Origin: a virus
Taxonomy: Duplodnaviria; Caudoviricetes
Virus record (IMG/VR): IMGVR_UViG_3300010167_000013
Strand: one strand, 5' to 3'
DNA: 64,000 nucleotides
How positions within the stretch are numbered: the first letter of the stretch is position 1; each line of letters begins with the position of its first letter. This document shows positions 27,909 to 52,314 of this stretch, one piece after another. Position numbers and translations under genes: made by a program. The notes below the pieces were generated by a model. That model did not search any database, had not been told where the DNA came from, and was given only the letters and a program-made list of their open reading frames with translations.

Positions 27909-30593
27909 TTACCCTTCATACCCTTTTGGAAATTTGATATCAATCAGAGGTCTGTCATTCGGGTTGGTTATTTTCACATCCATTATCTTTTTATAGAGGG
28001 ACAACAGCTGTGTCTTCATTCTTTCTAGATATTCTTTGTTGTGAGGTACTACGTATTTTTTAGACCCAACAGACAGCAATTCGATGTACCAGTCAATGAT
28101 TTCTAATTTACCTAGCAAGTACGAAATCAACATGTGTTTGTCATTAGAATCTCTGATTGATTCTGCTTCAACGCTAATGTATGCAACTAAATCTGTTGGA
28201 ATCTTTTTCAGTCTCTTCATTCCAAACTTCTCATACATCAACTGAGTCTGAACAGATTCTGATTTGTACTGTCGATCTATTTGTTCATCGATGAACGTTC
28301 TCGAGGATTCTAATATCATGTCCTCGTATCCGTTGAAATACAACATCTCTACGGCTTCTGCCAGATGAGATAAACTCTTCATATTATCGCCGGGTTCACA
28401 ACACTCTCTCAAATTCTTGACCATGTCTTTGACATCTTCAATTATCTTTTTCTTTTCCTTCTCAGGAGCTGCATAGTGAGAAGCTATATTTCGAACAAAT
28501 TTATTGACAGTCTGGATATCATCATCACTAATCGAGAAAGTATCTTTGTTATTCATATCAACTTCATCAAACACAAATAGCAAACTCAATGGATATGTGA
28601 CTAAGCCACTCAGCTTACTGTTGGCAACTAGATGTCTCATGTTATGTCCTAACCTCATAACCTCAATCATCAATCTATTGCCAGCTTTTTCAAGCTTCGT
28701 ATCGTAATACTGAACAGCTAATTTGAAGAAATTGTAGGCGTCATTTGGATCTTTCATCGTACGGAATATGTTTGGAGACATCTTGATTCTGATCTCAGAA
28801 TTCTTGTGTATGAAGGACTTGAGAGTTTCTCTTCCATTTATGAAACGAGATACAAAGTCTTGACTCATTGATGGAGATATGAATTCGAAAATCGGAAGTG
28901 ATTTGTCCCCATCTAGCGTAATTTTTAACTTGTTGAATCCACTAGTCCACTTCGGTAATAAGTTCTTGGTTATGATATTGGCATAGATGTTGGCTGTGTA
29001 CTGAGATACTTTCTTTTTCTTATCCTTGGAGAAGTCGGTCATCAGCGACTGGGATAGAGTTTGTAATGTCTTCTTGGCTTGTGTTTCAGACATGTCGGTA
29101 TTATATTCAAGGGTTTCTGAAGATTCGTTAAATATCTTTTTCCCTATTTGTAAAAATTTTTTAGCGGGAAGTATCGCATCGATTTGAATTTCCATATGCT
29201 CTATGTCTATCCCAGACTGTGAAACGTCCGTGAGTGAAAATACCACCTGAGAACTTATGGAATTAATGTTTTTTCGAAATTGAATGTAATCCGATCTATT
29301 TATCAATACATTAGCCACATCAGTATAGATAAAAGCTAGCCCTTCATTGGAAAACAACTGAGCTTTTGATTTATTCTCCGTGGTTTTCACGAGTGTTCCA
29401 AACGTGGCAACCCCTCTATACATATCTTCAACATCTTGAACCAGTCCTTTAGCTGCCAATGGATAGCTCTTATCAAATACATTCCTAATATGTATAGTAG
29501 CCCTATTCTCATATTTTGTTAAATCGAATACAGATGTCCCCAGTATATTTGATACTGTGTTTCTTATGAATTTACTATTGATCTTAGAATCTATCTTGGG
29601 TATTAAATATCCTACAAACTTCCAAACACCGTCTACTATAATGGCATCTATAAACTTAATAAATATAGATTCCATGATAGTAGAGTCAGTCTCCAAAAGC
29701 ATTTCACCGGACTCTTTTAATTCCTTTACTTTGTCATGTGCTGATTCCAAAACTTCCCCACTTTTACCAGATGGAGTTTTAGTTATTCTTTTATCTGGTT
29801 GACTGAACCACCCACAATGTTTACACCATATGGATCCTCCACCATACACCCAGGAGTGTTTACAGTTCATTGCTTCTTCTTTGCTCGCATTGTTCCTAGT
29901 TGGTTCTGGATAATTCCAACTACCTGTGTCGAGATGTTTTTCGTCGAATGCATCAGAAGATTCTGACTCCTTTAATTCCTTTGGCTTCTTCACGTTCTTA
30001 TTCCCCACATTCTCCAGTAGATCCCATACCTGCTTTGCTATTTCATTCGATGGATATGCATCCCATCCTTCAAAGTCTTTGTCCTCTGACTCGTTGTCTA
30101 GTCTGATTTTGTACTCCTTCTGTATTCCAGATTTCATTTCAGCATACACGTCAGAAATGAATTGGTGAAGAAGTTTCTCAATGGAGTTCTTTTGCCCGTT
30201 CTTGAAATGCCCTGTAATTTGTACCATACAATCATATTTTCCATTACCTTTGTCAGTTACTCGAACCATTCCAACATCAGAATTGTTTTTCGGTGGAGTG
30301 CAAAAGATTGCAACATTCTTCATTGCTTCTCTTGAGTCATTGATCTTGTCGTACTTCGGACTCTTGACTAAGGTTTTAACTTTGTCTATTATCGACTTAT
30401 TTACTGACCTTAGAGTTGTCTGAAGATCACTTGGAAGATCCGAGAAAGACCCATCTCGATAGTTTTTCTCATTAAAAACATTTTCTGTTATATCATCCAA
30501 GTAGGCAGATTCAGTCTTCAAGAATCCTTGGGCTTTACTATCATTGATTACATTTCTTGCCGCATTCAAATTGGCCAATACATTTGTCTTCAT
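27909..30593 (-). CDS. Large modular putative internal head protein
   Basis: 894 aa; many hydrophobic-x-E(S) sites; internal domain shared with 35497..38478; near the capsid gene. Confidence 0.65.
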   Translation of the reverse strand: MKTNVLANLNAARNVINDSKAQGFLKTESAYLDDITENVFNEKNYRDGSFSDLPSDLQTTLRSVNKSIIDKVKTLVKSPKYDKINDSREAMKNVAIFCTPPKNNSDVGMVRVTDKGNGKYDCMVQITGHFKNGQKNSIEKLLHQFISDVYAEMKSGIQKEYKIRLDNESEDKDFEGWDAYPSNEIAKQVWDLLENVGNKNVKKPKELKESESSDAFDEKHLDTGSWNYPEPTRNNASKEEAMNCKHSWVYGGGSIWCKHCGWFSQPDKRITKTPSGKSGEVLESAHDKVKELKESGEMLLETDSTIMESIFIKFIDAIIVDGVWKFVGYLIPKIDSKINSKFIRNTVSNILGTSVFDLTKYENRATIHIRNVFDKSYPLAAKGLVQDVEDMYRGVATFGTLVKTTENKSKAQLFSNEGLAFIYTDVANVLINRSDYIQFRKNINSISSQVVFSLTDVSQSGIDIEHMEIQIDAILPAKKFLQIGKKIFNESSETLEYNTDMSETQAKKTLQTLSQSLMTDFSKDKKKKVSQYTANIYANIITKNLLPKWTSGFNKLKITLDGDKSLPIFEFISPSMSQDFVSRFINGRETLKSFIHKNSEIRIKMSPNIFRTMKDPNDAYNFFKLAVQYYDTKLEKAGNRLMIEVMRLGHNMRHLVANSKLSGLVTYPLSLLFVFDEVDMNNKDTFSISDDDIQTVNKFVRNIASHYAAPEKEKKKIIEDVKDMVKNLRECCEPGDNMKSLSHLAEAVEMLYFNGYEDMILESSRTFIDEQIDRQYKSESVQTQLMYEKFGMKRLKKIPTDLVAYISVEAESIRDSNDKHMLISYLLGKLEIIDWYIELLSVGSKKYVVPHNKEYLERMKTQLLSLYKKIMDVKITNPNDRPLIDIKFPKGYEG

Positions 30594-31648
30594 AGTGTTG
30601 AACTCACCTCCTGCATCCCTTGAATATTTTTGAAGCTATTCAAAATTTTTTCAGCATCATCGATCTTTGATAGAGAGGAATTCTTATATTGCATGTCACT
30701 AATATTCTTGGAGAGTTTCCTTAGGATCCCAATGTTATATTCAATCTTTTTTATATAACCACTATAGCTACTGACAGGACGATGTGATATTATATCTCCT
30801 ATTCCAGGACTATTATTGATAGTATATTTATCATAATTAGTTACTGGTAATTGGCCCCTAGTATAACCTCTGACCTTGGGAGTAAACTGAAATTGGCTAA
30901 AGTTGGACATATTCCAGAAAAGTTTGGTAGTTTTATATTTATTCGCACCCTGTCTATCGTTATCGTCTTTACTGATGTGGTATTCTTCCCAAGTCCCTTT
31001 TTTCAATTGTTTTGCCTCATCAATAAATGCACTCTTAAAAGTATCAGATTGGATCAGTTTTTCTACCGAATTGTTCTGCATGAGTCTAGGTTGAGATTTT
31101 ATCAAAGTACTAACAACTTGCATTAACAGTTCTCGACCTTTGCCAAATACTGGAACTAATCGAACTGATGATATTTGTTTTCCGTCTTTGTGAAATATTG
31201 ATAATACCTTCAATGATTTACTTAGATGATCTATGTGACCATATCTCTTTATCGTTTTCTTGACCTCCGATAATGCATCAGAGTGCATTTTGTTGATGTC
31301 ATCCTTTGTTTTATTTGGGAAAACCGCTGACGTCATCGCCTTGTCTCCAACTACTGTGATATCACTTGGGAGAAGTTCAAATTGAATAGCTACTCTGTCT
31401 CCAGTATCAATATCAAATCCTATCCGATATGCATACTTTAGATCTTTATGAGACTTTTCAAATAACACCGAATAAAAATTTTCTAATTGTTCAATGCTCT
31501 CTACTACTCCGCGAGAAGTAAATAGTGAACTAGGGTCTTCAATGTCTGGTTTATATTCTTCATATGATAATACCATTTCTTCCAAATAATCTAGAACATC
31601 GGAATCAAGTCTAGCATCCGAACATATTTTATTTATCTCATCATTCAT
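30590..31648 (-). CDS. Putative head protein, stand-alone copy of repeated domain X
   Basis: Acidic leader then LKYAYRIGFD...GHIDH...YHISKDDND.QG...TKLFWN, shared with 47359 and 49663 ORFs. Confidence 0.7.
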   Translation of the reverse strand: MNDEINKICSDARLDSDVLDYLEEMVLSYEEYKPDIEDPSSLFTSRGVVESIEQLENFYSVLFEKSHKDLKYAYRIGFDIDTGDRVAIQFELLPSDITVVGDKAMTSAVFPNKTKDDINKMHSDALSEVKKTIKRYGHIDHLSKSLKVLSIFHKDGKQISSVRLVPVFGKGRELLMQVVSTLIKSQPRLMQNNSVEKLIQSDTFKSAFIDEAKQLKKGTWEEYHISKDDNDRQGANKYKTTKLFWNMSNFSQFQFTPKVRGYTRGQLPVTNYDKYTINNSPGIGDIISHRPVSSYSGYIKKIEYNIGILRKLSKNISDMQYKNSSLSKIDDAEKILNSFKNIQGMQEVSSTL

Positions 31649-31686
31649 ATATTAACCCCTTTATATAAAAAATAAAGGGATTATTA

Positions 31687-32100
31687 TTACAATCCCTCTG
31701 TCTGAAGAGCGTATTCTAATTCCTGTTTAGATATCTCACGTATCCAATACGAACTTAATAGTTCATAGTTTTCCGTAAGGAATGCTACGATCTTGTCCCA
31801 GTGATCCCGGATACCGAAGAATTCTAAGTCACTCTCAAACCTGTGAGATGGGCATGCGAATGACACTTCTCCATTGACGATATGTACTAGCATACCTGAA
31901 TATCGTCCCATGGTGAGTTCTGGGCCAGATATTCTGAATGGAAATCCAATTGTTCCATCTATGGATATAGGTCTATCGGAATTATCTATCCATACATGTA
32001 CATATGGGGGTAACTGTGCACCTCTGATATACATCTTATTTGTAGATAACTCCAGCAGGTGCTCTAGTGGAACCCATTGGGAAATATGATCTTTTACCAT
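31687..32100 (-). CDS. Hypothetical early protein
   Basis: AAGGAG SD and early motif upstream. Confidence 0.6.
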   Translation of the reverse strand: MVKDHISQWVPLEHLLELSTNKMYIRGAQLPPYVHVWIDNSDRPISIDGTIGFPFRISGPELTMGRYSGMLVHIVNGEVSFACPSHRFESDLEFFGIRDHWDKIVAFLTENYELLSSYWIREISKQELEYALQTEGL

Positions 32101-32129
32101 TTCGAATCATCTCCTTATTTATATTCAGC

Positions 32130-32144
32130 TTATAATATATAATT
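32130..32144 (-). promoter_or_regulatory. Putative early phage promoter AATTATATATTATAA
   Basis: Recurring motif upstream of 32100. Confidence 0.6.
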
Positions 32145-32260
32145 AGAAAATGATCATATACGCTATATTTCAAACTCTCAATTACATATTTTTGATTCCT
32201 TCTCACATTGGGAATTAATCCATGTTAACATTATATCGAGGTTGACGATAGACGAAAGAA

Positions 32261-32292
32261 TATAGTAGCAGGGACTAGTCCCTGCTACTATA
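32261..32292 (-). terminator. Palindromic hairpin downstream of the capsid gene
   Basis: TATAGTAGCAGGGACTAGTCCCTGCTACTATA, flanked by an extra ATATCGAG/CTCGATAT pairing. Confidence 0.7.
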
Positions 32293-32344
32293 CTCGATAT
32301 TATTGGGAGGGATAAAATATGGTGATGGCCGAATTTATCATCTA

Positions 32345-34213
32345 TTACGGAGTTGGGAATGCGGCCAACGGTGCCCACGGAGCTCCTGTAATCGGAGGAC
32401 GTACTGGAGCGGGACCATAGACGCGTTCGCTGTTGAGCATAATCAAGCGACCCTGGATTCCTTGAACAGCTAAGGTATGGAACCTCGAGGTAGCAGTGAC
32501 TATGTTGTACGCACCACCAGGAGCATTCGTACTCTGGTAAGCAGTCTGGCTCTGGGAAGTGAACAGGTGCGAAGTGTACTTCAAGTGACGGAAGGAAATA
32601 TGTTCTGGGGTTGTCGGATATCCGTACAGGTGAAGTATGAGTTCCCTAGCAGGAGGAGTTACTCCATCAGGATTAGTAATCGGATCAACAGTATATGCAT
32701 CATACAGATTGGTAGCTACTACACGAACATTAGCTCCCATATCAGTAGCAAAACCATAGCTGTTATTTACAGTGATACCACCAATGGTTGCACCTTGTTG
32801 GGTCTTCCACTGAACGAATTCAGTTATCAGCTGACACGCCATCGGGTTGCCGACGATGATGAAGCTGAGGTTATCCATCTTCAAGCTCTCAGTGATCTGA
32901 TGGATTAACGCCTTGAGGCGGAACTGAATGGCCGTCGAGATATACTTGAACGGATCGCCAGCAAAGTACGACGGAGGACTAAGGTCAACTTGGAATGCCA
33001 TTGCAAGAGATTCCAATTTGTAGATATCAGTAGTAACACCGTGGTACATCTCGAATTGGTTATTGAGGAATTTGATAACAGTCATGCACTCTTGCATTTC
33101 CTGAGTCTTGACAATTTCATCAACCATCCGGTTGTAGTAATTGATGTCAAGCAACGCAGCGGCATCTTCGATTTCTTCAATCGAGAAAGGCATGTTCCAA
33201 CGCGGTCCATCCTCGATCGTGAAACGGAGAATGTCTCTCTTCTCACGGACACTAATGTGACGAAGGTTTTTCTCATTGGAAAGATACCCAGAGAATACAA
33301 CACCTTCTACCTGTCCACTAGACGAAGACATATCGATAGTACCGTTTTTGAAATCAACTTTACCACTCAGGGTATCTTCTACATCGGTGCCACCCTCACT
33401 GGTAAACTTGAGATCTCCATTGATAAGAGTTCCACCAGTCGAGAATTCAACCGTAATACCATTGCCCTTGAGACGAATTACTTCAGTACCAACTTGAACA
33501 CCAATTATCTTGAACTGGAAGCTGAGTTGATCAAGACCAGGGGTACCATCAGTAAGACTGCTGATTATATCATACTTCCAGAGTTTCCCAGCAACAAACG
33601 GTACAACCTCTTCGCGAATCGGATGACCTTTTGATGCATTCCACATTTCTTCCCAAGTACCATCGAACATACATTTCGGATACTCTAACTCTTCACCAGT
33701 CTCATTGTTAACCATGTAGGTTGTGCGAATATGCTTGGTGATGTTCGGAGTTTTTACCGTTTCTACTTCGATGATGTCCTTGAGGATGGACTGGAAGAAC
33801 TGCTTCAAGAGAACCGGGAATTCAAGAGTTGCAATCGGTAAGAACCCAGTCATACTGGCAGACTCACTATAGTTCCTGACCTTCGTATCCCAGAATTTCT
33901 GCACGTTCTCGATGATGCTTTCGATGTGAGGATCATTCGGAGACATTGCCCTAAAGCCTTCAAACACTGGCTCCATGAGAGCCGTCTTGTACTCCTCCAT
34001 GAATGAACGATCAGCCATCATTCCACGCATGTCGGTCTTGATGTCGATAGAGTTGTTCTCCTTGTAGTGCTCGTAAAGATCGTTGAAGTGCTCGTCAAGA
34101 GTTTTTACACCCTCTTGCTGAAAAGCTCCGAAGGAACTAGCAGGAGCTACATACCCACTATTTTTTCTCTCAGCAGCAGATTCATAGAACCAGCCCACTT
34201 TGTTTTTGCTCAT
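32345..34213 (-). CDS. Major capsid protein
   Basis: 622 aa; higher-GC, high-expression codon bias; acidic propeptide ending near YSES; own late promoter motif; resembles jumbo-phage capsid proteins. Confidence 0.75.
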   Translation of the reverse strand: MSKNKVGWFYESAAERKNSGYVAPASSFGAFQQEGVKTLDEHFNDLYEHYKENNSIDIKTDMRGMMADRSFMEEYKTALMEPVFEGFRAMSPNDPHIESIIENVQKFWDTKVRNYSESASMTGFLPIATLEFPVLLKQFFQSILKDIIEVETVKTPNITKHIRTTYMVNNETGEELEYPKCMFDGTWEEMWNASKGHPIREEVVPFVAGKLWKYDIISSLTDGTPGLDQLSFQFKIIGVQVGTEVIRLKGNGITVEFSTGGTLINGDLKFTSEGGTDVEDTLSGKVDFKNGTIDMSSSSGQVEGVVFSGYLSNEKNLRHISVREKRDILRFTIEDGPRWNMPFSIEEIEDAAALLDINYYNRMVDEIVKTQEMQECMTVIKFLNNQFEMYHGVTTDIYKLESLAMAFQVDLSPPSYFAGDPFKYISTAIQFRLKALIHQITESLKMDNLSFIIVGNPMACQLITEFVQWKTQQGATIGGITVNNSYGFATDMGANVRVVATNLYDAYTVDPITNPDGVTPPARELILHLYGYPTTPEHISFRHLKYTSHLFTSQSQTAYQSTNAPGGAYNIVTATSRFHTLAVQGIQGRLIMLNSERVYGPAPVRPPITGAPWAPLAAFPTP

Positions 34214-34266
34214 AATTAATATTCTCCTTTACCATAAATTTTAATACGGCATTTGCCGAGGTGATT

Positions 34267-34278
34267 TAATTGATTGTT
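34267..34278 (-). promoter_or_regulatory. Putative late promoter AACA-N6-TA
   Basis: Minus strand AACA ATCAAT TA upstream of the capsid gene. Confidence 0.55.
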
Positions 34279-34892
34279 TACTCCATCGCCTTCATCCCTT
34301 TTTGAATATTTTTTCCAAAGATGTCATTGAGCAATTTGAGTAAATTAAGACACTTATTAAAGAACAGTAGGTTTTTGCTGTAGTTCTCGTTCAAAAAATA
34401 ATTAGCTAGATATGCACGAATGTTTTCATCTAGCTTCTTCAATGACGAAACTATATCCAGTGAATCATTGGATATTGTGAATAATACATCATTGTTATTT
34501 TTTATCATCGAGAGTTGATTTCCTACGCTATTTAATAATGATAGAAATCGTTGATACAGATTCTGATTCATGATAGCTGATATCTTTTCATCAAGTCCCA
34601 AATCTTCAGGAACTTCTTCCTCAGATCCGATATCTCCGAACCCTTCTTCATCTCCAAAATCTTCTCCTAATTCAGGAGGATCTGACCCAGACATATCACC
34701 CCCTGGATCTCCTCCACTTGCTGCTGGTAAATCAGGAGGATCTCCACCACCGGTATCAGGAGGTGCATCTGAAGTAGGTTCTTCGGCGGGAATATCCGGA
34801 GGAGGATCTCCAGGAGCTTCATATATGACTCGTTCAAATAGACTAAGTTCTCTTTCCATGTTTCCTTCACCCACCTCCCTTTTCAAAGACAC
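34278..34892 (-). CDS. Acidic, Pro/Gly-rich putative head/scaffold protein
   Basis: IYEA then disordered acidic region and helical C-terminus; directly upstream of the capsid gene. Confidence 0.65.
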   Translation of the reverse strand: MSLKREVGEGNMERELSLFERVIYEAPGDPPPDIPAEEPTSDAPPDTGGGDPPDLPAASGGDPGGDMSGSDPPELGEDFGDEEGFGDIGSEEEVPEDLGLDEKISAIMNQNLYQRFLSLLNSVGNQLSMIKNNNDVLFTISNDSLDIVSSLKKLDENIRAYLANYFLNENYSKNLLFFNKCLNLLKLLNDIFGKNIQKGMKAME

Positions 34893-37800
34893 TATAGTAT
34901 CTTAGCCATCTCTTTAGTCCCGCCTACTCTAATAAGTTTCTTATTTAATTCGTTCTTGAAGCGCATCAGTTGATATTTGGCTTTGTTGTCTCCCTTGGAA
35001 TTAGCATCTCTGATCTTCTCATCGATGATTTCAAGTTCGGCTTTCAACTCACCTATCATCTCATTACGAAGTCTAAATTCATTTCTGTTCTTCCCGATCT
35101 TCCTAGTTATGGATAGAAATAGGAACACTGGGTTCAGAAGTATACCAGCCTTGAATAGTGATCCTCCAATGATAGATGCTTTCACAGCTTTGAATATATT
35201 ACTTCTAGCATGAGGATCAGCCATCTTTTCTTTGATATTATTTTCATCAGCGTCTTTCCACTGATTGATCATGTTGGTTACCCATTGAGAAGTTCTTTTC
35301 AATGGTTTTACAAATGCTTTGCCAACATTCACTGTATCTTGAACCTTTTTCTTGGCTGCCTGTTGACCTTTGTTGAGGGCCCTATCAATGTCCATCATGG
35401 TATCTCGGATTGGGTGATCTGACTCTGGTTTATCTTTGTCAGCATCTCCAACAGCTTCAGCTATCCCTTTGGGATGATGTTCAATACGTACATCCCCTAT
35501 CCCTTCTGGAATGTACTCAACTGAAAAAAACTTTCTAGTTCCCAAGGAGCTGATTCAGTTAGCTCGTTTTCTACCTTATTCAGTACTTGAACAGCAGATC
35601 TGTAGGCACTACTCATTGTTCTTACAATTATATCAAGTAGTCCTGAAATAGCTTTACCAGCGAGGACTAATGTGTTGAGATTTCTTTCACCGGAGAATCT
35701 GTCTCTGAGAATTTTACTCCTCATCATACTAACTAGCATCCTCAATTCCGTGATACTAGTTTGTGAGGAGAACCCAATATCTCTGCTCAATATAAGCTTC
35801 ACTCCAAAGGCCTCTAATAGATGTCCTTCGGAAAATGTTGCTGACATTTTATCTACATCGTCCTTGCCATGCATTCGTTCTAGTTCACCAAATCCACCAG
35901 AAGAAGATATACGGAATGCTGGACTAGCGTATGTCTGTGCTGCTCCGAACCATATTGCAATCTTTCTTCCAGGACCTGTATTGGATAAACTTTGATAGTA
36001 GCTACCATCGTGTTCAGGAATTCTGGAAGTGTTCAAGTACTCAGCAATATCCCTGATGGCAACATCTACCCCCTTCGTGTTAGGGGCTTCTAATTTCATA
36101 ATAATCAACTTATCGTTATTTATTTTAAGTCTTTCCTTGATCTTTTCAGATGCATTGAACTTTTTCTCAAGTTCATTAAATGCCGCAATTGTTTTTGGGA
36201 ATACCTTATCCAGAATATTTAGAATAAAATCCCATATTCTTCTCAAGACCTCTTTGGCTTTATCCAAAAACGATGGACTAGACTCGATGGATTTTCTATT
36301 CAATCCAGGAAATGGTACCGCTAGAGAATCTTCTGTAAAAAGATCAACTGCGCTCAAATAGTCTTGATAGATGGACTCATACAGACCAAATGGCTCTGAT
36401 AGTGGAAGTTCCATGATGCTCTCTAGCTCGAATGAAACTGATTCGGTTTTAGCATCACTGAAGTTATCTAGGAGGAATTTTTTAGCGGGGAGTATCATCA
36501 CTAGATCGACAGCACAGTATTCACAAGATTTAGCTTCTTTCGATAGTGCTGCCCAAGCCTTCTCATATTCTTCTTCTGGCTTATCTTTGTACTCTTCCAT
36601 CTGTAACTCTGGATGAGATGATATGACTCCTGCATCATGCAAGTATGTCCAAGCCCCACCACTATCATCACCTGGAAGATCCAATTCGGTAACAGAGAAT
36701 TTTATATCAGAAGATAATCTATTGAGTTTGTCAACATATGCTTTCACAGATGTTTTCTTGATGACTCCGGTAACAACGTCATTGGCAGCAAATGCTAGAT
36801 TGTCTTCTGAAAAGGTAACCTTACTAGCATCCTTCTTGTTTGACAATGATCCCCAACAAGCATCTATCTTGTTGATCTTGGACTTAGTTTTCTCAGGTTT
36901 GTAGAAACCGCCCAAGATGGTACGTTTATTTTTATCACAGAGATCTTGGAATTCTTTATTTGCAGCTGAAATATATTTCTGATGATTATTCCCAGCACCT
37001 TTACCAAGTATAGATGAAATAGTTTTCCCGATAGCCTTGTTATCTTTGCTTTTCGAGATACCTAATGCTGTGACACTAATTCCCCCGAGTATGATTGGGA
37101 ATAGAACAATACCCAAGATTGCTCCTAATACTACAGAACCCTCACTAAACTCCTCATCACATTCCTGGTTGATGTCGTCACTATTGATTCTCTTCCCAAT
37201 AGAATGATCATCAACTGATTTGGAATTATCAACGCTCTTCTTGTTGGTATTGTGAGAGTTAGTAACGTTGTTGGAATTGGTGTATGTGTAGTAATAATAG
37301 TTATTGATTGCTTGCTGCTTTTCTTCAGGAGTTGTAGCACTCTTGATGTCGTCCTTCAATTCTTCTACTGTAGTATCAGTAGCGACAGTAGATGGACGTT
37401 TGAAATCGTCCAAGCTTGGTTCTGGTTCATCATCAGAGGTTGATTTGCTTTTCCCATCATCTTCACCGTAACCAAGACTGTGATTCTTTTTGATGTAACC
37501 TGGCATCTGGCCAGAAGTTTTATTCGTGGTAGTATTCCGTGCAGCCCATTGTTCCTTCAGCATAGGACTGACGGGTTTCTGTGATGGTAACATCGGAAGT
37601 ACATTGTCAGTAGTATCTTCTACCAGACCTTCGAATTCTTCGTAGAGGGAATATATTTGTTTTTGTACATCCATGATCTCATCTGTATTCTCAAGACATG
37701 TCATCATGTACTCCTTGAATGAAATGAGGTTTTCCATGGACACAACTTCTTCTGGAGAATACTCAATCATGATGTCATTATTTCCAGTTAATACCGATTC

Positions 37801-38478
37801 CCTGAAGAGTAGATGTTTCCTGGATTTTATTACATCATATATTCCATCCAACGATTTCTCTGATATGGCTTGATGATCTTCCTTGTACTCAATATCTTTC
37901 ATGCACTCAAGTATCCATTGATACGTGATAGCATCCAGTTTACTATTTTCAAATATAGTCAATAGTTGGTCAACGGTATCGTTCTTGACAGATTCTATGA
38001 TTGCATCTGGAATGACAACATTTCCAAATCGACGATACTGTTTGTCAAGAGTTTTTATCAGGGGAACATCTCTCTCATAGTAATGGTTCACATATCCTAG
38101 CTCTAGATTGTCCTCGAATGCTTCAAACATGATGAAGTTATATTTGTATTTATTCTTGAATGACTCCATTCGCCTGGTAGCTTCCAGGTATGGAGTGTTA
38201 TCCTTTGCCTGTTGCCCACATTTCTTGATGGCTGATTCGAGATACTTCATCACCACACCATAGCTTGCTAGTGATAAACCATACTTCTCAATGAACGTAT
38301 CCAGTGTGTTCAAAGTGCTAGTAGATGAAATTATATATTCTAAGTTTAGCAGATACTCGTTTGGTTTATTCATGAGAAGGTCATCGACAGCTTCCAGATA
38401 CTTTTCTATATCCACCGGTCTACCACTGGATCTAGCCGCATGATACAACGTCTTGATATCTTCCATAATGTATCTCAA
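34892..38478 (-). CDS. Large modular putative head protein, apparently one gene split by a -1 frameshift at T7 (ORFs 35497..38478 and 34892..35545)
   Basis: Overlapping ORFs meet at AGT TTT TTT CAG (+ strand A7 at 35524-35530); the downstream ORF has only a TTG start without a clear SD. Confidence 0.6.
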
Positions 38479-41407: not shown

Positions 41408-41688
41408 TACACATATTTTTCTAGGATATCATCCAGCTCATCAGGATATGAATCGAAACCATCCATCTCAATAGTTTCACTCAAGAACTCTTCTTCATCG
41501 CATTCTTTTCGAACTATGTTTATCATGGTAGCTTCCATCATACCAGCTAACTCAACCATCTTCATCAAAGTTTCTTCAATTTCATCATCAATGTTTCCAT
41601 CTTCTCTGATTTCATTTACATCAGACATGAATGAGTCTAGTTTCATGATAGATTGTTTGAGTAATCCCAATGGAAGTTTGTGTTCCAT
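41407..41688 (-). CDS. Small acidic hypothetical protein
   Basis: GGAGG SD; coupled to the upstream gene. Confidence 0.6.
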   Translation of the reverse strand: MEHKLPLGLLKQSIMKLDSFMSDVNEIREDGNIDDEIEETLMKMVELAGMMEATMINIVRKECDEEEFLSETIEMDGFDSYPDELDDILEKYV

Positions 41689-42533
41689 TATTCTTCCTCC
41701 TCCTCTGTTTCGAATTCCATATTGATATTTTTAGCTTTCACATACGTGTACTGGTTATTTGACAATGGAACGTTTGGTAAAACCCAAGGTGAATATTTGT
41801 AGCAGTCCATTCTTCCAAAAACCAAACAGCTGCCACCATTATTTTTAGTGAATGTAAACTTATAACAGATAAATTGTCCAATATCTCCATTACATATAAA
41901 TGTTTTTGGACTCCATACGGTATTCGGAAATGTTATTTCGACTCTAGAATCAACAACTATCCAATTTGCTTTATCGTTAGATCCTTCAACGATCCATGTA
42001 TTTGGAGAGCATATAGCCATGGTGTTATCATGAGATGACCCTCTAGTACTGATAGAATATTCTTCTAATAGTTGTGGCTGATTCAACATCACTGACAACG
42101 CCTCATTTCCTATTCCACCTGAGTAAGAATTGTTGGCTGTTGCCCATCCATCTCCTGTCTGCACCCTTCTAAATAGAAGCCAAGGTTCAAAAGTGGAATT
42201 ATACACAGAAGATCTTTCTATTACATAAGGAGATGGAGAAGTATTCGATGTCATTACTGGAACGATATATGTCAATGGTCTTGTGACGCCTAGGACCCCT
42301 ATTAACTCAGGATACTCTTCTATGTCAATCTCTCGTCCATCCATCCGTAACCATATTCCTTGATTGGTATATACTACAGGATCATTCCATCCCATCACTT
42401 GTTGCCATCCTATTGGGTAGGCTAATGTATCTGCAACAAATACTACTTTAGCAGGTTTCTTTCTATCTATTTCGGTCTTTACTCCGTTCAACAATCTTTT
42501 TATTCCAGATGAATCAACTAGCTTTTGTTGCAA
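41688..42533 (-). CDS. Tail-fibre-like protein: collar domain enclosing an F5/8 type C (discoidin-like) domain
   Basis: PIG...WLRMDGREIDIEEYPEL...PNTWIVEGSND..NW..VD...YVKA. Confidence 0.72.
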   Translation of the reverse strand: MQQKLVDSSGIKRLLNGVKTEIDRKKPAKVVFVADTLAYPIGWQQVMGWNDPVVYTNQGIWLRMDGREIDIEEYPELIGVLGVTRPLTYIVPVMTSNTSPSPYVIERSSVYNSTFEPWLLFRRVQTGDGWATANNSYSGGIGNEALSVMLNQPQLLEEYSISTRGSSHDNTMAICSPNTWIVEGSNDKANWIVVDSRVEITFPNTVWSPKTFICNGDIGQFICYKFTFTKNNGGSCLVFGRMDCYKYSPWVLPNVPLSNNQYTYVKAKNINMEFETEEEEE

Positions 42534-42563
42534 CTGTCATCCCTCCTCTACAAGATCTTGGAA

Positions 42564-44189
42564 CTATTCCACTTCATATTTGAATCCCTTGTGGTTAGCC
42601 TTGACGTATGTATACTTCCCGTTCACAAGTGGTACGTTCTCCAATGATGGTTCTGATTTTACATATATAAGTTTTAGATCCCCAATACAAACACAGTTAC
42701 TATCGCCGATAGCTTCAGTTTTTGTGATGTTCAATTTGTAGAATTTGTACATTTTCCTCTCGGGTAACATGTACTGCTTGGATGCATATGCAGTTAGTGG
42801 GAATGACTGACCTGTTTGACTATCAATAACATCCCACGTATTTCCGTCTAAACTTCCTTCTAATGTCCATTGAGATGGATTGAATGAATACTTGACATTA
42901 GTATTTACACCTCTACGGTGAATGATGTATTTGTCAATGCTTTTCTTCTCCGGAAGTTCAATCACCAACCAAACATCTTTATTGGCTACATAGTTTGTGA
43001 AACAGCTATTTGGTGTGCTCCAACAGTCATGTTCATCGTTGAGCCCGGCTACTTGATCGAATGCTTTCCATGGTTGGTAGGTTGGAGTATGTAACGGCAT
43101 CCCAGGTGGCATTGATGCTTTATACCCATTCATCTCATTGCCGTTCATGGCTGGTGTGATGATAACGTCACCAGTAAAACAGTCCAATGTTGTACTACCA
43201 GCCAACTCGGGGTATTCTTCTATATCTATTTCTCTACCATCACATCTCAACCATTCACCATCATGTGCATATACTATTGGATCATTACATGCTAATACTT
43301 TTAACCACCCTATTGGATAGTTTGGATACATACGATGATCTGTAGCCTTTATGTATGAATTTAGATCATCAACTGGTGGAATGTTTTTCAGAAAATAAAT
43401 CGGCTTTCTAAATAAACCTAACTCCGAGATAGTTAGCTGTGTGGATGTTGATTTTATCTTGGTTATAGTTAACCTGTAGAACTTGAATGGTTTTGATTCT
43501 TCTGCCAGTGAGTATATAAAACGCTGCGCATGGGCTGTGAAGTTCTGATCTGTTTGAGAATCTATTACCTCAAAATTGGCACCATCGAATGATCCCTCGA
43601 TAATCCAGTCAACAGGTGAACCAAAGGAGCTACCAGTAAGAAGATTAGACCCAGCATTACGTCTACAACTGCTTATCCCGTAGGAACTAATTGAATTTCC
43701 AACAGGCAGTTCCATTTGTATCCAGTCGTTTCCTACAGCTCCTGGATATGAGTTAACGGAGGATGCCCATTGATAGTATGGAGGTGTATTAGAAGTTGTT
43801 ACACTTCTAACACGGGTGAACGCATACCATGCTCTAGTCATAGTATCAGCATACCTTGACTCAGATGCTGTAAATCCATTTGTAGTGACTCCAGTCATTA
43901 TTGGGGTCACGAGTGCATCATCACTAGGCGCCTCAATATAGCTAATCGCTGTAGCACCTGCTAACTCAGGATACATTTCTATATCTATTTCTCTACCATC
44001 ACATTTTAACCATACATTACCCCAATAATCAGTAACTATATCATCTATCCAAGCTGCTTTAGTAATAGCTCCTACAGGCAAATCAGGTATCACAGAAGTA
44101 ACATGAGGATGTTTGAGATCAGCCTTCTTTGCATTGATAGCGCGGAGAGCTCGTGTCAATCCAAGGTTGTCTATGAGTTTTTGAATCAT
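42564..44189 (-). CDS. Tail-fibre-like protein with two collar+discoidin modules
   Basis: Two WL.CDGREIDIE.YPELAG repeats, each followed by a P..W..EGS.DG...VID.Q domain with YKF/FYRL.IT. Confidence 0.75.
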   Translation of the reverse strand: MIQKLIDNLGLTRALRAINAKKADLKHPHVTSVIPDLPVGAITKAAWIDDIVTDYWGNVWLKCDGREIDIEMYPELAGATAISYIEAPSDDALVTPIMTGVTTNGFTASESRYADTMTRAWYAFTRVRSVTTSNTPPYYQWASSVNSYPGAVGNDWIQMELPVGNSISSYGISSCRRNAGSNLLTGSSFGSPVDWIIEGSFDGANFEVIDSQTDQNFTAHAQRFIYSLAEESKPFKFYRLTITKIKSTSTQLTISELGLFRKPIYFLKNIPPVDDLNSYIKATDHRMYPNYPIGWLKVLACNDPIVYAHDGEWLRCDGREIDIEEYPELAGSTTLDCFTGDVIITPAMNGNEMNGYKASMPPGMPLHTPTYQPWKAFDQVAGLNDEHDCWSTPNSCFTNYVANKDVWLVIELPEKKSIDKYIIHRRGVNTNVKYSFNPSQWTLEGSLDGNTWDVIDSQTGQSFPLTAYASKQYMLPERKMYKFYKLNITKTEAIGDSNCVCIGDLKLIYVKSEPSLENVPLVNGKYTYVKANHKGFKYEVE

Positions 44190-44207
44190 GTTATCCAGTG
44201 TCACCTC

Positions 44208-46196: not shown

Positions 46197-46217
46197 GATT
46201 ATATATTCTAATGTAGA
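46197..46217 (+). promoter_or_regulatory. Putative early phage promoter GATTATATATTCTAATGTAGA
   Basis: Recurring motif upstream of 46241. Confidence 0.62.
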
Positions 46218-46240
46218 TAAAAGAAGGAGTTGTTGTTTGA

Positions 46241-47239: not shown

Positions 47240-47250
47240 TATTATCGGAC

Positions 47251-47282
47251 AATGATAGCCAGGATATATCCTGGCTATCATT
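47251..47282 (+). terminator. Palindromic hairpin terminator
   Basis: AATGATAGCCAGGATATATCCTGGCTATCATT followed by T-rich tail. Confidence 0.72.
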
Positions 47283-47358
47283 TGTTGTTCTATCTATTTT
47301 TTATAACATGATTCTCACAGCTAAGTAAGCTCATAACATATAATAGAGGTGAAGTAGC

Positions 47359-49650
47359 ATGACCAGAATTGAGATCGACAATAAAAATTCCATCAATGGA
47401 TCTAAGTGGAAAGATCCTGGTGCTGATCTTTTTAATAAACTAGTAAGTGCTATTAATAATGAAGAGTTAGTAAAAGAAGCATATCTGATCACACCAAAGG
47501 TGATTGCACCAAACTTCCCAAGGTCTGTACCAACTTATTCTGGTAGTGGGTGTAAGTACCCACACCACCAAGTACGTGATGGAAAATTGCTTGTCAACAA
47601 AGCCGGTCTGGTGGCTGCTTATTCTAGAGCTCGTCAGCAAGGAGTATGCAGAGGAGATGTCAAAAAACATCTAATAAAACACTACAAGGAATTAGGAATG
47701 TATGATGATTCCAAGATAAGTATGGATGAGAGAATGGAACAGAACTTCGATGATATAGATAATTACATCATGGAGAATATCCCAGCATATAGAGAAGCTG
47801 TGGAAGAACTTATGTCTATTGATGATGAAATGGCAGAATCATATGTATATGATGAAATGGCAGAATCATATGTATATGATGAATCGGCACTAAATATTGA
47901 AACACAAATTGTATCTGGAATTAGTGTTCCAGAAGAAATGTATACATCTCTCTGGACAGAAAAAGTCTATCTCATGGAACTCCCAGATATTGAAAAATAT
48001 TTGTCCAATGAGCTAATAGATTTAGAAAATGAGTTACTGTTCAAGGAATCCTACGGCGATGAATTCTACATATATAGATATAGAGGGTTTCATGAACCCC
48101 CGGAATTAGAACAAAAATTAGAAAGCTTGTATGGCATTTTATGCGAAAAGGGTGGATTGAAGTATACCTACCGAACTGGTTTTGATGTGTCTACTGGTAC
48201 TCAGATAGCCGTGGAATTCTATCTCGATCCATCTAGAATAATCGGTGTAGGAGATAGGTCACTAACTGGGAAAACTAAAAATACAGATCCTAATAATGAC
48301 CAAGGTAATATGATTAAATCTATACATGATAAAGCACTGGAACCAACCCCACGTTCTATTAGAATACATGGTCATTTGGATCACATCACTAGCGGTCTCA
48401 AAGTACATTCAATATTTGATATTAATCACAGGCCATATCAATCTGTAACTATGATACCTGCATTTTCCAATCCAGCTAGAGAAATACTCAAAACTATGAT
48501 ATCTATGGAGTCCATTAACGGAAATGATATTAGAACATCCCAGCAGATACAAGACCTGATCAAATCTGATAAATTTAAATCTGGATTTCTCATGAGAATA
48601 AAACATCACTCTTCTTATTTTGAAGAATATCATATTAGTAGAAATGACAATGATCTCCAAGGAGAAGGAAAGCACAAGTCGACTAAGCTATTTTGGAACT
48701 ACGACAACTTTGCTACATTTGCTCTTACTCCGAGATTCAGAGGTCCAATAACTGTTAATACCAGGAATAAGGATTTTGATAACGATCAACAGAAACTCAT
48801 GGATGAGTATGATATTACAAATAAACCGCGCAAGGGATCTCTCGGAGAAGATATCGAACTAGTAAATGAAATGATGGATGGTTTAGAATCTTTCTTTGAA
48901 GAAGGAAATATCAAAGATAAAAATACTAACTATATTCCAGTCTACGGAATATCAAAAGGACAAAGTCCTGATATGACTAGAAGGGATGGGTCTCTAAAAG
49001 GAGAAGACGAGCTGGATGCAGTTAGATTCAGCAAGGTTATAAAAACTCTCACTAGAGGAGACAACTATTCTCATTCATTGGTATCGTTGGATGATTCGTT
49101 TCAGAAGATGTATTCATATGATGATGAAGGGTTTGTGGTAGATAACATACTAAAGGTAGATAGTTGGATAGGTACTAAGTCGATATATGTGACGGTGATG
49201 TTTGTTTCCCCAGAAGACTATCAGAACATGAAAGACCGGATATCATATCTAATGAAACATCGGAAGGAAACTAAGTATGCCTCGGCAAATTTGCTGAAGA
49301 TGTTCATTGGGAATCCAGGTAAATCGGATAAACGTTTTGTCTGTTCTACTCTAGTTGGGTATTTGATGGGTACAGGAAATGTGAAGAATCTTCATAGAGA
49401 CTATACTCGAATTAGACCTGAGGATATAACTATAATCCCTAGGGCATTCTATGTCATGAACTTCCTAGACAGAGATGATTTCATGGCCAGACATGATGAA
49501 TTCAGATCCAGGGTGAAACACATTTATCAGGAACACAAGGATGAAATTAATGATTACAATAATCATCTTCCAAAGTTAGTTCTCAAAGAGAAGATGAAGA
49601 ACCTCGGAAGACTGGATAAAATTCTCGACTGGGTAATTGATAGAATGTGA
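47359..49650 (+). CDS. Modular putative head protein: KYPHH domain, domain X, permuted papain-like NlpC/P60 domain
   Basis: KYPHH...GLVAAYSRA...HL.KHY; domain X; YSHS...FVCS...PED with His before Cys. Confidence 0.68.
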   Translation: MTRIEIDNKNSINGSKWKDPGADLFNKLVSAINNEELVKEAYLITPKVIAPNFPRSVPTYSGSGCKYPHHQVRDGKLLVNKAGLVAAYSRARQQGVCRGDVKKHLIKHYKELGMYDDSKISMDERMEQNFDDIDNYIMENIPAYREAVEELMSIDDEMAESYVYDEMAESYVYDESALNIETQIVSGISVPEEMYTSLWTEKVYLMELPDIEKYLSNELIDLENELLFKESYGDEFYIYRYRGFHEPPELEQKLESLYGILCEKGGLKYTYRTGFDVSTGTQIAVEFYLDPSRIIGVGDRSLTGKTKNTDPNNDQGNMIKSIHDKALEPTPRSIRIHGHLDHITSGLKVHSIFDINHRPYQSVTMIPAFSNPAREILKTMISMESINGNDIRTSQQIQDLIKSDKFKSGFLMRIKHHSSYFEEYHISRNDNDLQGEGKHKSTKLFWNYDNFATFALTPRFRGPITVNTRNKDFDNDQQKLMDEYDITNKPRKGSLGEDIELVNEMMDGLESFFEEGNIKDKNTNYIPVYGISKGQSPDMTRRDGSLKGEDELDAVRFSKVIKTLTRGDNYSHSLVSLDDSFQKMYSYDDEGFVVDNILKVDSWIGTKSIYVTVMFVSPEDYQNMKDRISYLMKHRKETKYASANLLKMFIGNPGKSDKRFVCSTLVGYLMGTGNVKNLHRDYTRIRPEDITIIPRAFYVMNFLDRDDFMARHDEFRSRVKHIYQEHKDEINDYNNHLPKLVLKEKMKNLGRLDKILDWVIDRM
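47824..47883 (+). repeat. 27-bp tandem duplication (DEMAESYVY x2)
   Basis: GATGAAATGGCAGAATCATATGTATAT repeated exactly, plus a partial third copy. Confidence 0.9.
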
Positions 49651-49662
49651 GGTGAACTGAGT

Positions 49663-52314
49663 ATGAATGATGTGTTTCTCGAATCTATTCTTCGAGAGAT
49701 AGATGAGAGTGAAACTATATTCATCGAGAGCTCTGAGGTGTTAGGTCTCAGATACCAACAATACCGGAAGATCCCAAATATAATAAATGGATTCCTTGAG
49801 AAGATATCAGCATATGTTCAACAGTTAAAAACATCTCCTGAAACTAACATGGAAGGTATTGGAGATGTGATTCAGAACTTCAAGAGTGATATAATTGTTG
49901 ATGATAAAACAGAACCAATAGATCCTACCAAGGTTAGAGGTACTCGTAACTTCCTCAAAAAAATGAAAAACGAAGCAGATACTATACTAACAAAGTTGTC
50001 GAAGCTACGGAACCAAGTTCATTTTGGTGGTAATCTAGTCAGAGGTATTCTACTCAAGCCTAACGTGTACAGTAGGGATATTGATGATGATGCATATGGT
50101 AATATCAGTAACAACATGAGAGCTGTTCATAGATCATTGGATTGGACGGAGAAGGTATTAATAGATCTATTCAATCTCATAGATCAAGATTTGAATATAC
50201 TTACAATAGTCAATAGACAGTACCTCAAGAGAAAGATATATGAGAATGTGGAAGAAGTGCCTCCAATCATAGACAAGGTTGGATTCGATTTCGACTGGAA
50301 TGAAGAAGACATATGGAAGCTCGATATTCCAATAACCTCTATGAGGATTGAAGAATTAACGTGGCATTTTGATATACCATTTTGGGATCGTAACAATGGA
50401 GATTATAATCTCAGACCTATCGATGTAATAAATAACATGGGCAAGTACAAAGATCATGGGAGTAGAATTAAAAACGCTGACACTTCCTATCCATTAGACA
50501 TTTTGAAAAACCCCAAAACAAATAAGTGGACACTACTAGATGGATTACATCGACTGGCGAAATTATACATGGAAGGGAAGAAAGTTGTAAAAGTTAGAAA
50601 AGTAACTATGGCTGATATCAATAGATTGTATATGAAGGAATCTAGAGATGTTGAATCGTTCGATGATGAACTCAGTAGAGTAATATCAGAATCTACCATG
50701 GGTCTGGATGGAAAAGGATTCAATATAGTTGAATTTTTAGACTTAGAACATGAGCATATGTTCTTGGAATTCAATGATCCTCCCTATAGTAATTCGGCAA
50801 CGTATCACGGATTCAGACCTCCTCCAGGCTTGTATGAGCTCAATGAAACATATAAGATGCTCCTTGAAAAAGGAGACTTGAAATATACCTACAGGCTAGG
50901 GTTTGATGTGAGAACTGGTACCAAAGTTGCAGTCGAGTTTGAGTTGGATCCTGAGAAAATAACTGACGTTGGTGATCGAAACATTACCACTCCAGCTGCT
51001 GTCAATCAAAACCCTAGATACTCCCAAGAAAAAGATATGAACAGTGTTGTCGATAAGATACACAGCGATGCGTTAGAACCTACCAGAAGGTCAATCAAAA
51101 GATTTGGCCATCTGGATCATATTACTAGTGGTTTGAAAGTTAGAGCAATATTCGATATCAATGGTAATGGATATCAATCTGTAACATTGCTCCCTGCTTT
51201 CTCTGTTGCAGCAAGAGAAATTATTCGAGAAATAATTCTCAGGGAAAATTCCAAGGGAAACAAACTGAATGGGTCTAGTAGGTTACATCAGTTTTTTCAG
51301 ACGAATGATTTTAAATCTAGTTTTATTCGTCTGAGTGGAAATCCTAGATATTCGGGAAATCTTGAAAGTTATCATATCAGCAAGGATGGTAATGACCTTC
51401 AAGGTGACGGAAAACATAAAACTACCAAACTCTTCTGGAACTATGATAACTTCAGCACCTTCATGTATACTCCTAAATTCCGTGGCACAATAACAGCTAA
51501 TACTAGAAACAAAGATCATGATAATAGTGATAGTAGAATAAAACTCATGGATGATTACAATATCATGAACAAACCAAGAAAAGGATCTCTAGGTGAAAGT
51601 ATGGAAGATGATTTTAATTCGGATGATGATTTAGACTGGATAGAATCATATCTGATGGAAGAAGGAGAAGATCCTCCCGAGTTGGATGTACCAACTGAAG
51701 AAGCTCCAGTTGAAGAGGAGCAGAATGAATTGACATCATCTGATGAAGAGGAAAATATCGAGGATGAGCCAATTGAAGAACCTGTGACACAAGAACCAAT
51801 TTCTGAACCTCCAGAGATAGAACCAAAATCTCTTCCGAAACAAACAGATGCAGCTGAGTCAGATAAGAATGGTGTTCGTAGGAAGAAGTTGTATATTGCA
51901 TTCATCGAATGGTGCAAAGAATATAATCCAAAGAATACATTTGGTAGTGTATTCGACAAGGATATATTTCACAATACATATCCATTTGTGCCAAATGAGA
52001 TGAGGTATTTTTACAGATTAGCTAATCCGATGTTGTGTGTTCTTGGTGGAGAACTAACATTCTTTGCTGTAGCGGAACTGAGAAAGGTAAATGCGAATAC
52101 GAAGTTGGATGAAATGATGGTATTTGCTGCCACTCAGGAAGATCTACGAGTATTCAGCAAGAAAGACAAAAAGATCTACAGAGCAGTTGAGGAGAATGGA
52201 ATTCTGAAACTCAACCTTCTACTAGGAGATACATTCGATCAGTACATTCAGAAGATGATAGATCAAGGTGAAATTCTAAATGGACCAATTGAAAGTGATG
52301 ATGGAGGGGTTTAA
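49663..52314 (+). CDS. Modular putative head protein: helical domain, ParB/Srx-like domain, domain X, C-terminal domain
   Basis: ADTSYPL...LLDGLHRLAK ParB-like motif; domain X; acidic linkers. Confidence 0.68.
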   Translation: MNDVFLESILREIDESETIFIESSEVLGLRYQQYRKIPNIINGFLEKISAYVQQLKTSPETNMEGIGDVIQNFKSDIIVDDKTEPIDPTKVRGTRNFLKKMKNEADTILTKLSKLRNQVHFGGNLVRGILLKPNVYSRDIDDDAYGNISNNMRAVHRSLDWTEKVLIDLFNLIDQDLNILTIVNRQYLKRKIYENVEEVPPIIDKVGFDFDWNEEDIWKLDIPITSMRIEELTWHFDIPFWDRNNGDYNLRPIDVINNMGKYKDHGSRIKNADTSYPLDILKNPKTNKWTLLDGLHRLAKLYMEGKKVVKVRKVTMADINRLYMKESRDVESFDDELSRVISESTMGLDGKGFNIVEFLDLEHEHMFLEFNDPPYSNSATYHGFRPPPGLYELNETYKMLLEKGDLKYTYRLGFDVRTGTKVAVEFELDPEKITDVGDRNITTPAAVNQNPRYSQEKDMNSVVDKIHSDALEPTRRSIKRFGHLDHITSGLKVRAIFDINGNGYQSVTLLPAFSVAAREIIREIILRENSKGNKLNGSSRLHQFFQTNDFKSSFIRLSGNPRYSGNLESYHISKDGNDLQGDGKHKTTKLFWNYDNFSTFMYTPKFRGTITANTRNKDHDNSDSRIKLMDDYNIMNKPRKGSLGESMEDDFNSDDDLDWIESYLMEEGEDPPELDVPTEEAPVEEEQNELTSSDEEENIEDEPIEEPVTQEPISEPPEIEPKSLPKQTDAAESDKNGVRRKKLYIAFIEWCKEYNPKNTFGSVFDKDIFHNTYPFVPNEMRYFYRLANPMLCVLGGELTFFAVAELRKVNANTKLDEMMVFAATQEDLRVFSKKDKKIYRAVEENGILKLNLLLGDTFDQYIQKMIDQGEILNGPIESDDGGV

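Follow-up and report, generated by a model that had tools for sequence, protein, structure and literature searches.

The question raised by this locus is whether a phage can build interchangeable protein modules into its capsid as parts of long precursors and free them there. The DNA is a 64,000-nt stretch of the IMG/VR virus record IMGVR_UViG_3300010167_000013 (the window, in what follows, is this whole stretch), and the genes concerned lie around the major capsid protein gene, between positions 27909 and 52314. An initial annotation had described five mosaic head proteins here, with globular modules separated by linkers that a Glu-specific maturation protease would cut, so that effector domains could be delivered into the host with the DNA. 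All of the open reading frames (ORFs) that it named are present where it placed them and the mosaic architecture is real; the count is not, and the five proteins resolve into three carrier systems, two of which are split into two genes. The locus suggests that such phages load and swap proteins within the capsid. Our preferred reading, to which we give a probability of roughly 0.55, is that these are three families of expandable head polyproteins that are processed in the prohead by a protease of the Peptidase_S77 family.

Three families of carrier proteins

The families were defined by searching each module of the window against all ORFs of related loci (L numbers below) and 73 database proteins; four related phage genomes (G001–G004) were also searched. 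They are family A (P0005 and P0006), family B (P0001, with P0002 upstream) and family C (P0003 and P0004). Every family has conserved N- and C-terminal domains on either side of a variable middle, with overall lengths of 702–1,923 residues in A, 395–1,767 in B and 674–1,278 in C. Among phages whose capsid proteins are 70–77% identical the middle varies from 0 to ~1,200 residues, and it can hold up to four copies of an orphan domain (domain X) plus GNAT, NUDIX, transglutaminase-like, HD or LRR modules. Alignment of orthologous carriers shows that they differ by whole modules, the inserts being bounded precisely by conserved hydrophobic-x-Glu-[Ser/Ala] sites. In eight of eight related loci the capsid gene and the scaffold-like ORF204 have family B on one side and family C on the other.

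The carriers of the window contain three to five modules each, none of which has a Pfam name. At E≤0.01 no Pfam family matches P0001–P0003, P0005 or P0006, and hence PF12699 does not; P0004 has only a chance-level, sub-threshold match to DAB2P_C. Neither Pfam nor PHROG families match P0001, P0002, P0003 or P0005, and the sole family match of P0006 is phrog_17560 (function not assigned; residues 258–319). Named domains are found in the relatives: among 23 giant ones, Pfam identifies GNAT in eight, transglutaminase-like domains in six and NUDIX in four, as well as HD and LRR.

Carrier B

The relation between conserved ends and inserts is seen in family B, whose features in the window are as follows.

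27909–30593, minus strand: P0001, carrier B
29943–30593, minus strand: conserved N domain of P0001 (P1N)
~29694–29942, minus strand: Cys/His mini-module of P0001, between KELKES repeats
29710–29727 and 29965–29982, minus strand: 18-nt direct repeats (17/18 identical), 85 codons apart
29124–29696, minus strand: domain Y of P0001
27912–29123, minus strand: conserved C domain of P0001 (P1C)
30590–31648, minus strand: P0002, a stand-alone domain-X gene whose stop codon overlaps the P0001 start

P0001 orthologues directly follow the capsid gene in all eight related loci. The shortest has 395 residues (L007, C domain only) and the next 593 (L001, no middle); the others have 691, 758, 818, 860, 894 (the window), 998, 1,112, 1,120, 1,507, 1,639 and 1,767. 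In every orthologue with a mapped N domain the last residues of this domain are hydrophobic-x-E, with S next (D in one), and a hydrophobic-x-E|S/A site, with the bar at the putative cut, stands ahead of P1C in 10 of the 13 orthologues examined. The two sites are only 15 residues apart in L001, which has no insert, and are separated by 173 to 1,194 inserted residues in the other orthologues with both end domains. Domain X, which has its own gene (P0002) in the window, is fused within the P0001 orthologue instead in L003 and L005/6. P1C has no usable match in the ESM Atlas.

Each of the 18-nt repeats encodes a KELKES site, and the pair brackets the 85-codon Cys/His mini-module. This had been labelled a zinc finger; the flanking repeats are present as described, and the label itself is a motif reading alone. 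In a linker of P0005 a perfect 27-nt tandem duplication repeats an M-A-E-S site. Both the repeats and the duplication would fit in-frame recombination or duplication at linker-coding DNA.

Carrier C

35497–38478, minus strand: P0003, carrier C
35500–37044, minus strand: domain Y and cargo of P0003 (residues 479–993)
35524–35530, minus strand: T7 run (T_TTT_TTT)
34892–35545, minus strand: P0004, conserved C-terminal anchor (P4) of carrier C

Family C is a single ORF in most relatives and is split between P0003 and P0004 in the window. P0003 consists of a conserved N domain (P3N) and a low-complexity middle (residues 1–450), a hydrophobic stretch of 28 residues resembling a membrane span, then domain Y and a C-terminal cargo that is unique to it; domain Y and the cargo together make up 515 residues, which have no homologue but their own record among 5.8 billion clustered proteins. 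The conserved part of P0004 starts directly after I-A-E|AVGDAD, with no ATG or GTG start ahead of it. A −1 slip at the T7 run fuses P0003 to P0004 and restores the single-ORF orthologue, and a homopolymer assembly error at this run would look identical to a slip site. L003 has a gene of its own for the P4 anchor (2071–2670), whose product opens with a leader of eight residues, MNESVLSE, closing in L-S-E|A ahead of AVGDAD. The P3N/P4 junction of L003 has no slippery run, and carrier C is thus split in at least two different ways.

Carrier A

47359–49650, plus strand: P0005, N-terminal half of carrier A
47359–47733, plus strand: KYPHH domain of P0005
47822–47875, plus strand: 27-nt tandem duplication in the Glu-site linker of P0005
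47971–48873, plus strand: domain X of P0005
48916–49647, plus strand: C-terminal module of P0005 (P5C)
49663–52314, plus strand: P0006, C-terminal half of carrier A, preceded by a GGTGA ribosome-binding site of its own
49663–50262, plus strand: N-terminal module of P0006 (P6N), opening with three tandem hydrophobic-x-ES sites within 22 residues
50260–50652, plus strand: module of P0006 matching phrog_17560
50650–51627, plus strand: domain X of P0006, followed by an acidic Pro/Glu linker
51805–52311, plus strand: conserved C-terminal domain of P0006

We regard P0005 and P0006 as the halves of one split carrier, because the giant relatives with domain X have both KYPHH at the N terminus, as in P0005, and a C-terminal domain of the P0006 type. 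The split recurs: P0053, P0063, P0070 and P0073 resemble P0005 and share its KYPHH...P5C architecture, as does G002, and P0033 and P0072 resemble P0006. The C-terminal domain is ~165 residues long and 60–76% identical in most of the 35 proteins that have it (57% in G004). The set of modules differs in each of the five phages compared:

Window: KYPHH-X-P5C, then P6N-phrog_17560 module-X-C domain
G001: KYPHH, HEIGH-motif module, Cys/His module, C domain; no X
G002 (three genes): KYPHH-P5C; P6N; 1,079-residue chain with two X and the C domain
G003: KYPHH-X-GNAT-C domain
G004: two GNAT, X, C domain

Two of the labels first given to modules of this carrier were not borne out in sequence searches. 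Both the putative ParB-like region (P0006 ~200–330) and the putative permuted NlpC/P60 region (P0005 520–763) are without a Pfam match at E≤5 or a PDB sequence match, the former matching phrog_17560 only. For the C-terminal domain an ESM Atlas feature search returned Knr4/Smi1-like clusters at 0.91–0.92, a recognition just below the reliability mark, and no Pfam or PDB sequence match to SUKH/SMI1-KNR4 was found; the resemblance is a lead from the ESM Atlas feature score alone.

A short element, D/E-L/F-D/Q-W-I/M-x-x-F/Y, is present at P0006 residues ~655–667 (~51625–51665) and also in L033, L034, L035 and L036. It has hydrophobic-x-E|S before or after it, precedes different carrier-A modules in several phages, and may be a shared linker cassette.

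The junction motif and a candidate protease

The linkers had been described as rich in hydrophobic-x-Glu sites. These do occur at module junctions; the plain form, with no Ser or Ala required, is weakly enriched (z 1.2–2.7), at a level matched by several other ORFs of the window. The form with Ser or Ala after the Glu occurs 29 times in P0001, P0003, P0005 and P0006 against 11.3 expected from shuffles (~2.6-fold, Poisson p 7.7e-6), compared with 44 against 39.3 (1.1-fold) in the other ORFs of the window. The 73 database relatives have 443 such sites where 187 are expected (~2.4-fold), and control ORFs of related loci have 109 where 75 are expected (1.45-fold).

The same pattern is found at junctions of different kinds. 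The leader of the major capsid protein contains the sites FYES and YSES, as first noticed in the initial annotation, and both are invariant in nine related capsid proteins; the sites read WFYE|S and Y-S/T-E|SAS, and the second coincides with the start of similarity to the AR9 capsid protein. The start of P4 follows hydrophobic-x-E in nine homologues, with A or S next in seven and D in two, and five continue with VGDAD. The I-A-E|A of P0004 matches the leader site of the T4 internal proteins. Domain X, for its part, can be recognised by an LKY signature in 70 copies, 59 of which have standard spacing, and all 59 begin with [FILMY]-x-E-[KAGR]-S-H-G.

Cleavage of the phiKZ and SPN3US type had been invoked for these linkers. 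The protease motif of those phages has A, S or G at P3 (A/S/G-x-E; PMC10052503). That part of the proposal fails, since [ASG]-x-E is not enriched here and the sites have a hydrophobic residue at P3, as in T4. Genes of the corresponding protease family, Peptidase_S77 (that of T4 gp21), are present in G001–G003 (~288 residues, two above the Pfam cut-off), and G004 has a weak match in a 98-residue fragment. In the Fusobacterium phage JD-Fnp4 a gene ending in P4 is followed by a 210-residue gene and then by a capsid-sized gene, the same synteny as here, and an annotated prohead serine protease lies 4 kb from this P4-type gene cluster. P4-type genes are also present in the Fusobacterium phages JD-Fnp1, JD-Fnp6 and JD-Fnp7.

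Domains X, Y and KYPHH

Domain X occurs three times in the window, as initially proposed (P0002 1–270, P0005 205–505 and P0006 330–655; identity 38–54%, E 1e-47 to 1e-89). Its profile finds only 76 of 1.84 billion cluster representatives at E≤1e-3, many of them in proteins of 1,000–1,900 residues with two to four X copies. The X core (P0006 ~404–595) is predicted with pLDDT >85 over most of its length, and the fold has no match above noise in the PDB (Foldseek, VIA-align) or BFVD (Foldseek). A fourth copy, in P0001, was indicated by BLAST (E 2e-4) and rejected, the profile-profile comparison of the P1N family with X giving a probability of only 1.6%. Also rejected was a zincin assignment, prompted by the AR9 'zincin protease' g118 at the P0002 position and a weak Zmp1 match (E 0.2); AR9 g118 has no similarity to X.

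The recurrence of domain Y is less secure. The two copies (P0001 ~339–463 and P0003 ~479–605) are 26% identical, a weak relation with E values of ~1e-4 to 7e-6 in tiny databases, and no further homologue was found anywhere searched.

The KYPHH module is a real conserved domain, present in 36 proteins. H69, H70, H104 and H108 are invariant and C65 nearly so, a pattern that would fit a metal site or a catalytic centre; the predicted fold (mean pLDDT 91) matches nothing above noise in the PDB (Foldseek, VIA-align). KYPHH is also found within a phrog_3313 protein directly after the portal gene of a 75-kb human-gut phage (L024 8395–10056, MT835481.1; E 1e-24). Weak matches are gp15 of Thomasclavelia phage TR-TP1 (L023 5101–6852; E 0.3), a phrog_3313 protein in the same post-portal position, and gp11 of Methanocaldococcus virus MFTV1 (L022 4437–5534), which is two genes before the capsid gene and is not phrog_3313. 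The KYPHH-bearing phrog_3313 proteins follow the portal gene in 75–90 kb phages, and KYPHH may be a widespread, undescribed head-assembly element.

The capsid locus and neighbouring genes

32345–34213, minus strand: major capsid protein, phrog_20655
34278–34892, minus strand: ORF204, acidic Pro-rich N half and helical C half
within 31687–32344, minus strand: ORF137
38539–41376, plus strand: DnaB-like helicase
41688–44204, minus strand: two adjoining tail-fibre-like genes

The source is an uncultured AR9-like jumbo phage, given the similarity of its major capsid protein to those of the AR9 group and to capsids on large IMG/VR contigs. Identity is 23–25% to Bacillus phages AR9 and PBS1, Staphylococcus jumbo phages and Listeria phage LPJP1, and 70–77% to those encoded by eight IMG/VR contigs, including four of 179–292 kb. 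There is no near relative among 50,697 GenBank phage records: INPHARED megablast of the whole region was empty, and INPHARED tblastn with P0006, P1C and the carrier-A C domain gave no match. A terminase gene and a tail sheath gene are close to the capsid gene. In all relatives ORF204 immediately precedes the capsid gene; it has no family match and, from its position, is probably a scaffold.

ORF137 forms a small unit of its own between the capsid gene and P0002. There is a hairpin 3' of the capsid gene and a second one, with a T-run, between ORF137 and P0002, and an AR9-early-promoter-like TATATATTATA is present ~30 nt upstream of ORF137 (motif at 32132–32139). Over the window as a whole the AR9 early motif TATATTAT shows no enrichment, with 12 occurrences against 8.3 expected. 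The closest relatives, L001 and L002, have no gene in the place of ORF137.

The helicase gene (PF20307, PF03796) has a LAGLIDADG/Hom_end intein-type insert at residues ~460–550. It also has 'terminase' PHROG matches, which span residues 231–633, wider than the insert, and may come from the P-loop ATPase region or the intein. The tail-fibre-like genes contain collar and discoidin (F5/8 type C) domains and are outside the present finding.

Proposed processing of the polyproteins, and the alternatives

In the reading that we prefer, the base form of a carrier would be a two-domain protein encoded in the capsid gene cluster, with a short linker that has hydrophobic-x-Glu|Ser/Ala sites between its conserved domains. 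This linker would repeatedly have taken in modules (orphan domain X copies, GNAT, NUDIX, transglutaminase-like and lineage-unique domains), each bringing or gaining a site at its edge. The conserved end domains would bring the precursors into the prohead as it is built, a gp21/S77-type prohead protease would cut them after Glu residues, and the freed modules would remain in the capsid as internal proteins, at least some of them entering the host with the DNA. In the window the predicted cuts would follow E209, E294, E308 and E490 of P0001, E30 of P0004, and E326, E343 and E645 of P0006. Of the cargo system originally envisaged, the exchange of modules between Glu sites stands, with the genes in the capsid cluster and a prohead protease gene in relatives; X, the commonest cargo, lacks any enzyme signature and may play a structural part instead.

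Several observations weigh against processing. No Peptidase_S77 gene lies within the 64-kb window, and no homologue was detectable in a cultured phage with proteomic data (INPHARED; P0006, P1C and carrier-A C domain). Two motif sites fall inside the conserved P1C domain, and the hydrophobic-x-E-K-S-H-G with which X begins may belong to the fold and not be a cut site. A similarity of P4 to the AR9 virion protein g115 was not upheld, the family profile missing g115 in spite of a pairwise E of 2e-4. Processing in phiKZ and SPN3US mostly trims N-terminal propeptides, with no dissection of polyproteins (PMC10052503). Finally, the frequency of the motif per glutamate is 0.083 inside mapped domains and 0.084 outside, a comparison that is not decisive because the mapped envelopes take in junction elements.

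This equal rate speaks for the alternative that survives best, in which the carriers are uncleaved, polyvalent-type multi-domain proteins acting whole, in the capsid or the cytoplasm, and the motif is a structural feature of domain boundaries (a helix end or N-cap) inherited with each module. At the X boundary the motif forms part of a longer conserved stretch, E-K-S-H-G-x-LKY, and polyvalent proteins are often thought to be single-chain or self-processed (PMC5512222). We consider it unlikely, however, given that the same three-residue pattern recurs at the unrelated junctions of the P1N end, the P1C start, the P4 start and the capsid leader, that it matches the specificity of the protease family found in relatives, and that the separate P4 gene of L003 keeps a short leader like the T4 capsid-targeting leader.

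A second alternative takes X, and perhaps Y, as a structural component from which an internal capsid body or a DNA-spooling core is made, its copy number setting stoichiometry; this would resemble the inner-body paralogues of phiKZ-like phages. X outnumbers every other module by a wide margin (132 matched stretches in 88 proteins, with ORFs of duplicate loci counted, and at most four per protein), its catalytic-looking residues differ between copies (GHLDH in the window, G-N-I-D-Y or G-Y-I-D-F elsewhere), and head paralogue families of the phiKZ type vary in copy number between phages (PMC5694885). X is not similar, though, to PF12699 or any solved capsid protein, and it travels with clear enzymes. 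G001 has no detectable X and yet has kept all three carriers, which counts against an essential structural unit, whose loss would not be expected. This makes the structural role a rather poor prospect.

Least probable is self-processing by a KYPHH, transglutaminase-like or zincin-like module as a releasing protease independent of the prohead protease and possibly outside the capsid: it would suit the invariant residues and confident orphan fold of KYPHH, its place in the post-portal slot where many phages encode a maturation protease, and the papain-clan transglutaminase-like modules and HEIGH motif of relatives, but families B and C share the junction motif with no KYPHH or peptidase module, no similarity of KYPHH to a protease was found in fold or sequence searches, and one Cys with four His fits metal binding equally well.

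The processed-polyprotein reading can be extended, as a tentative and somewhat doubtful generalisation, to cleavable linkers that are general landing pads, so that any module placed between two hydrophobic-x-Glu|Ser sites would automatically be packaged, released and injected. If so, in-frame recombination within the DNA that encodes linkers would let the ejected arsenal turn over and would have left the KELKES repeats and the linker duplication as its footprints, and KYPHH and X would represent a new capsid-targeting or processing domain and a new class of internal proteins or effectors.

Jumbo-phage capsid contents and the evolution of their cargo are largely unexplored beyond phiKZ, SPN3US and T4. 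The rule offered here, of fixed end domains and inserts bounded by Glu sites, might account for the way in which internal or ejected proteins are acquired and swapped. The locus flags uncharacterised modules as candidates for host takeover or anti-defence, and it defines two rare domain families, X and KYPHH, with confident predicted folds and no structural relative. If the sites are truly cut, the conserved ends could tag foreign proteins for loading into large capsids; the T4 targeting leader has already been used to load foreign proteins into capsids.

Comparison with known systems

To call this an undescribed system, as was first done, is too strong: packaged, protease-processed internal head proteins (those of T4, and Alt) and packaged multi-domain effectors (the polyvalent proteins, PMC5512222) are both already known. 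We found no description in the literature of a fixed-ends/variable-middle layout in three parallel families, of a T4-type junction motif conserved across unrelated modules, or of the orphan domains KYPHH and X.

The phages phiKZ, 201phi2-1 and SPN3US (gp175/gp245 protease, ejection proteins, head paralogue families A and B) belong to the same wider jumbo lineage with virion and non-virion RNA polymerases. In these phages many internal head proteins are processed after Glu, as predicted here, and paralogous head modules vary in copy number (PMC5694885, PMC10052503). They differ in their A/S/G-x-E sites and N-terminal propeptides, phiKZ head paralogue family A (PF12699) has no match here, and their modules are separate paralogous genes, whereas those of the carriers are chained into polyproteins.

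Polyvalent proteins (Iyer et al. 2017, PMC5512222) are phage-encoded and predicted to be packaged and delivered with the DNA, and their proteolytic release has been proposed; the survey does not mention jumbo or phiKZ-like phages. The carriers likewise combine many unrelated, effector-type domains in one chain and are encoded beside the capsid, scaffold-like and terminase genes. GNAT is common to both, and NUDIX and peptidase-like modules also occur in the carriers. No Pfam or PDB entry matches KYPHH, X, P1C or P4, which are therefore probably outside the polyvalent catalogue. Specific to the carriers are the layout of fixed ends and variable middle and the junction motif of prohead-protease type.

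MuF-fused polymorphic toxins and the Dar/DdrB proteins of P1 resemble the carriers in having a conserved head-incorporation domain with variable cargo. These proteins are processed before or during packaging (PMC5512222 for P1). The carriers have no MuF or Dar homology, and their cargo lies between two conserved domains and is not appended to one.

The closest parallel in the motif is with T4, whose internal proteins IPI–III and Alt, with a leader cut by gp21 (Peptidase_S77), are carried in the capsid and injected with the DNA, as is predicted here. Both the hydrophobic-x-Glu motif and the presence of the same protease family in related genomes contribute to this likeness. The cargo of T4 consists of small single-domain proteins with a leader of ~10 residues, whereas the carriers, as predicted from their genes, are chains of 700–1,900 residues that have a conserved domain at each end and numerous sites in between. 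They would be a chained, large-scale version of the leader-targeted internal proteins of T4, with a variety of domains of the polyvalent type.

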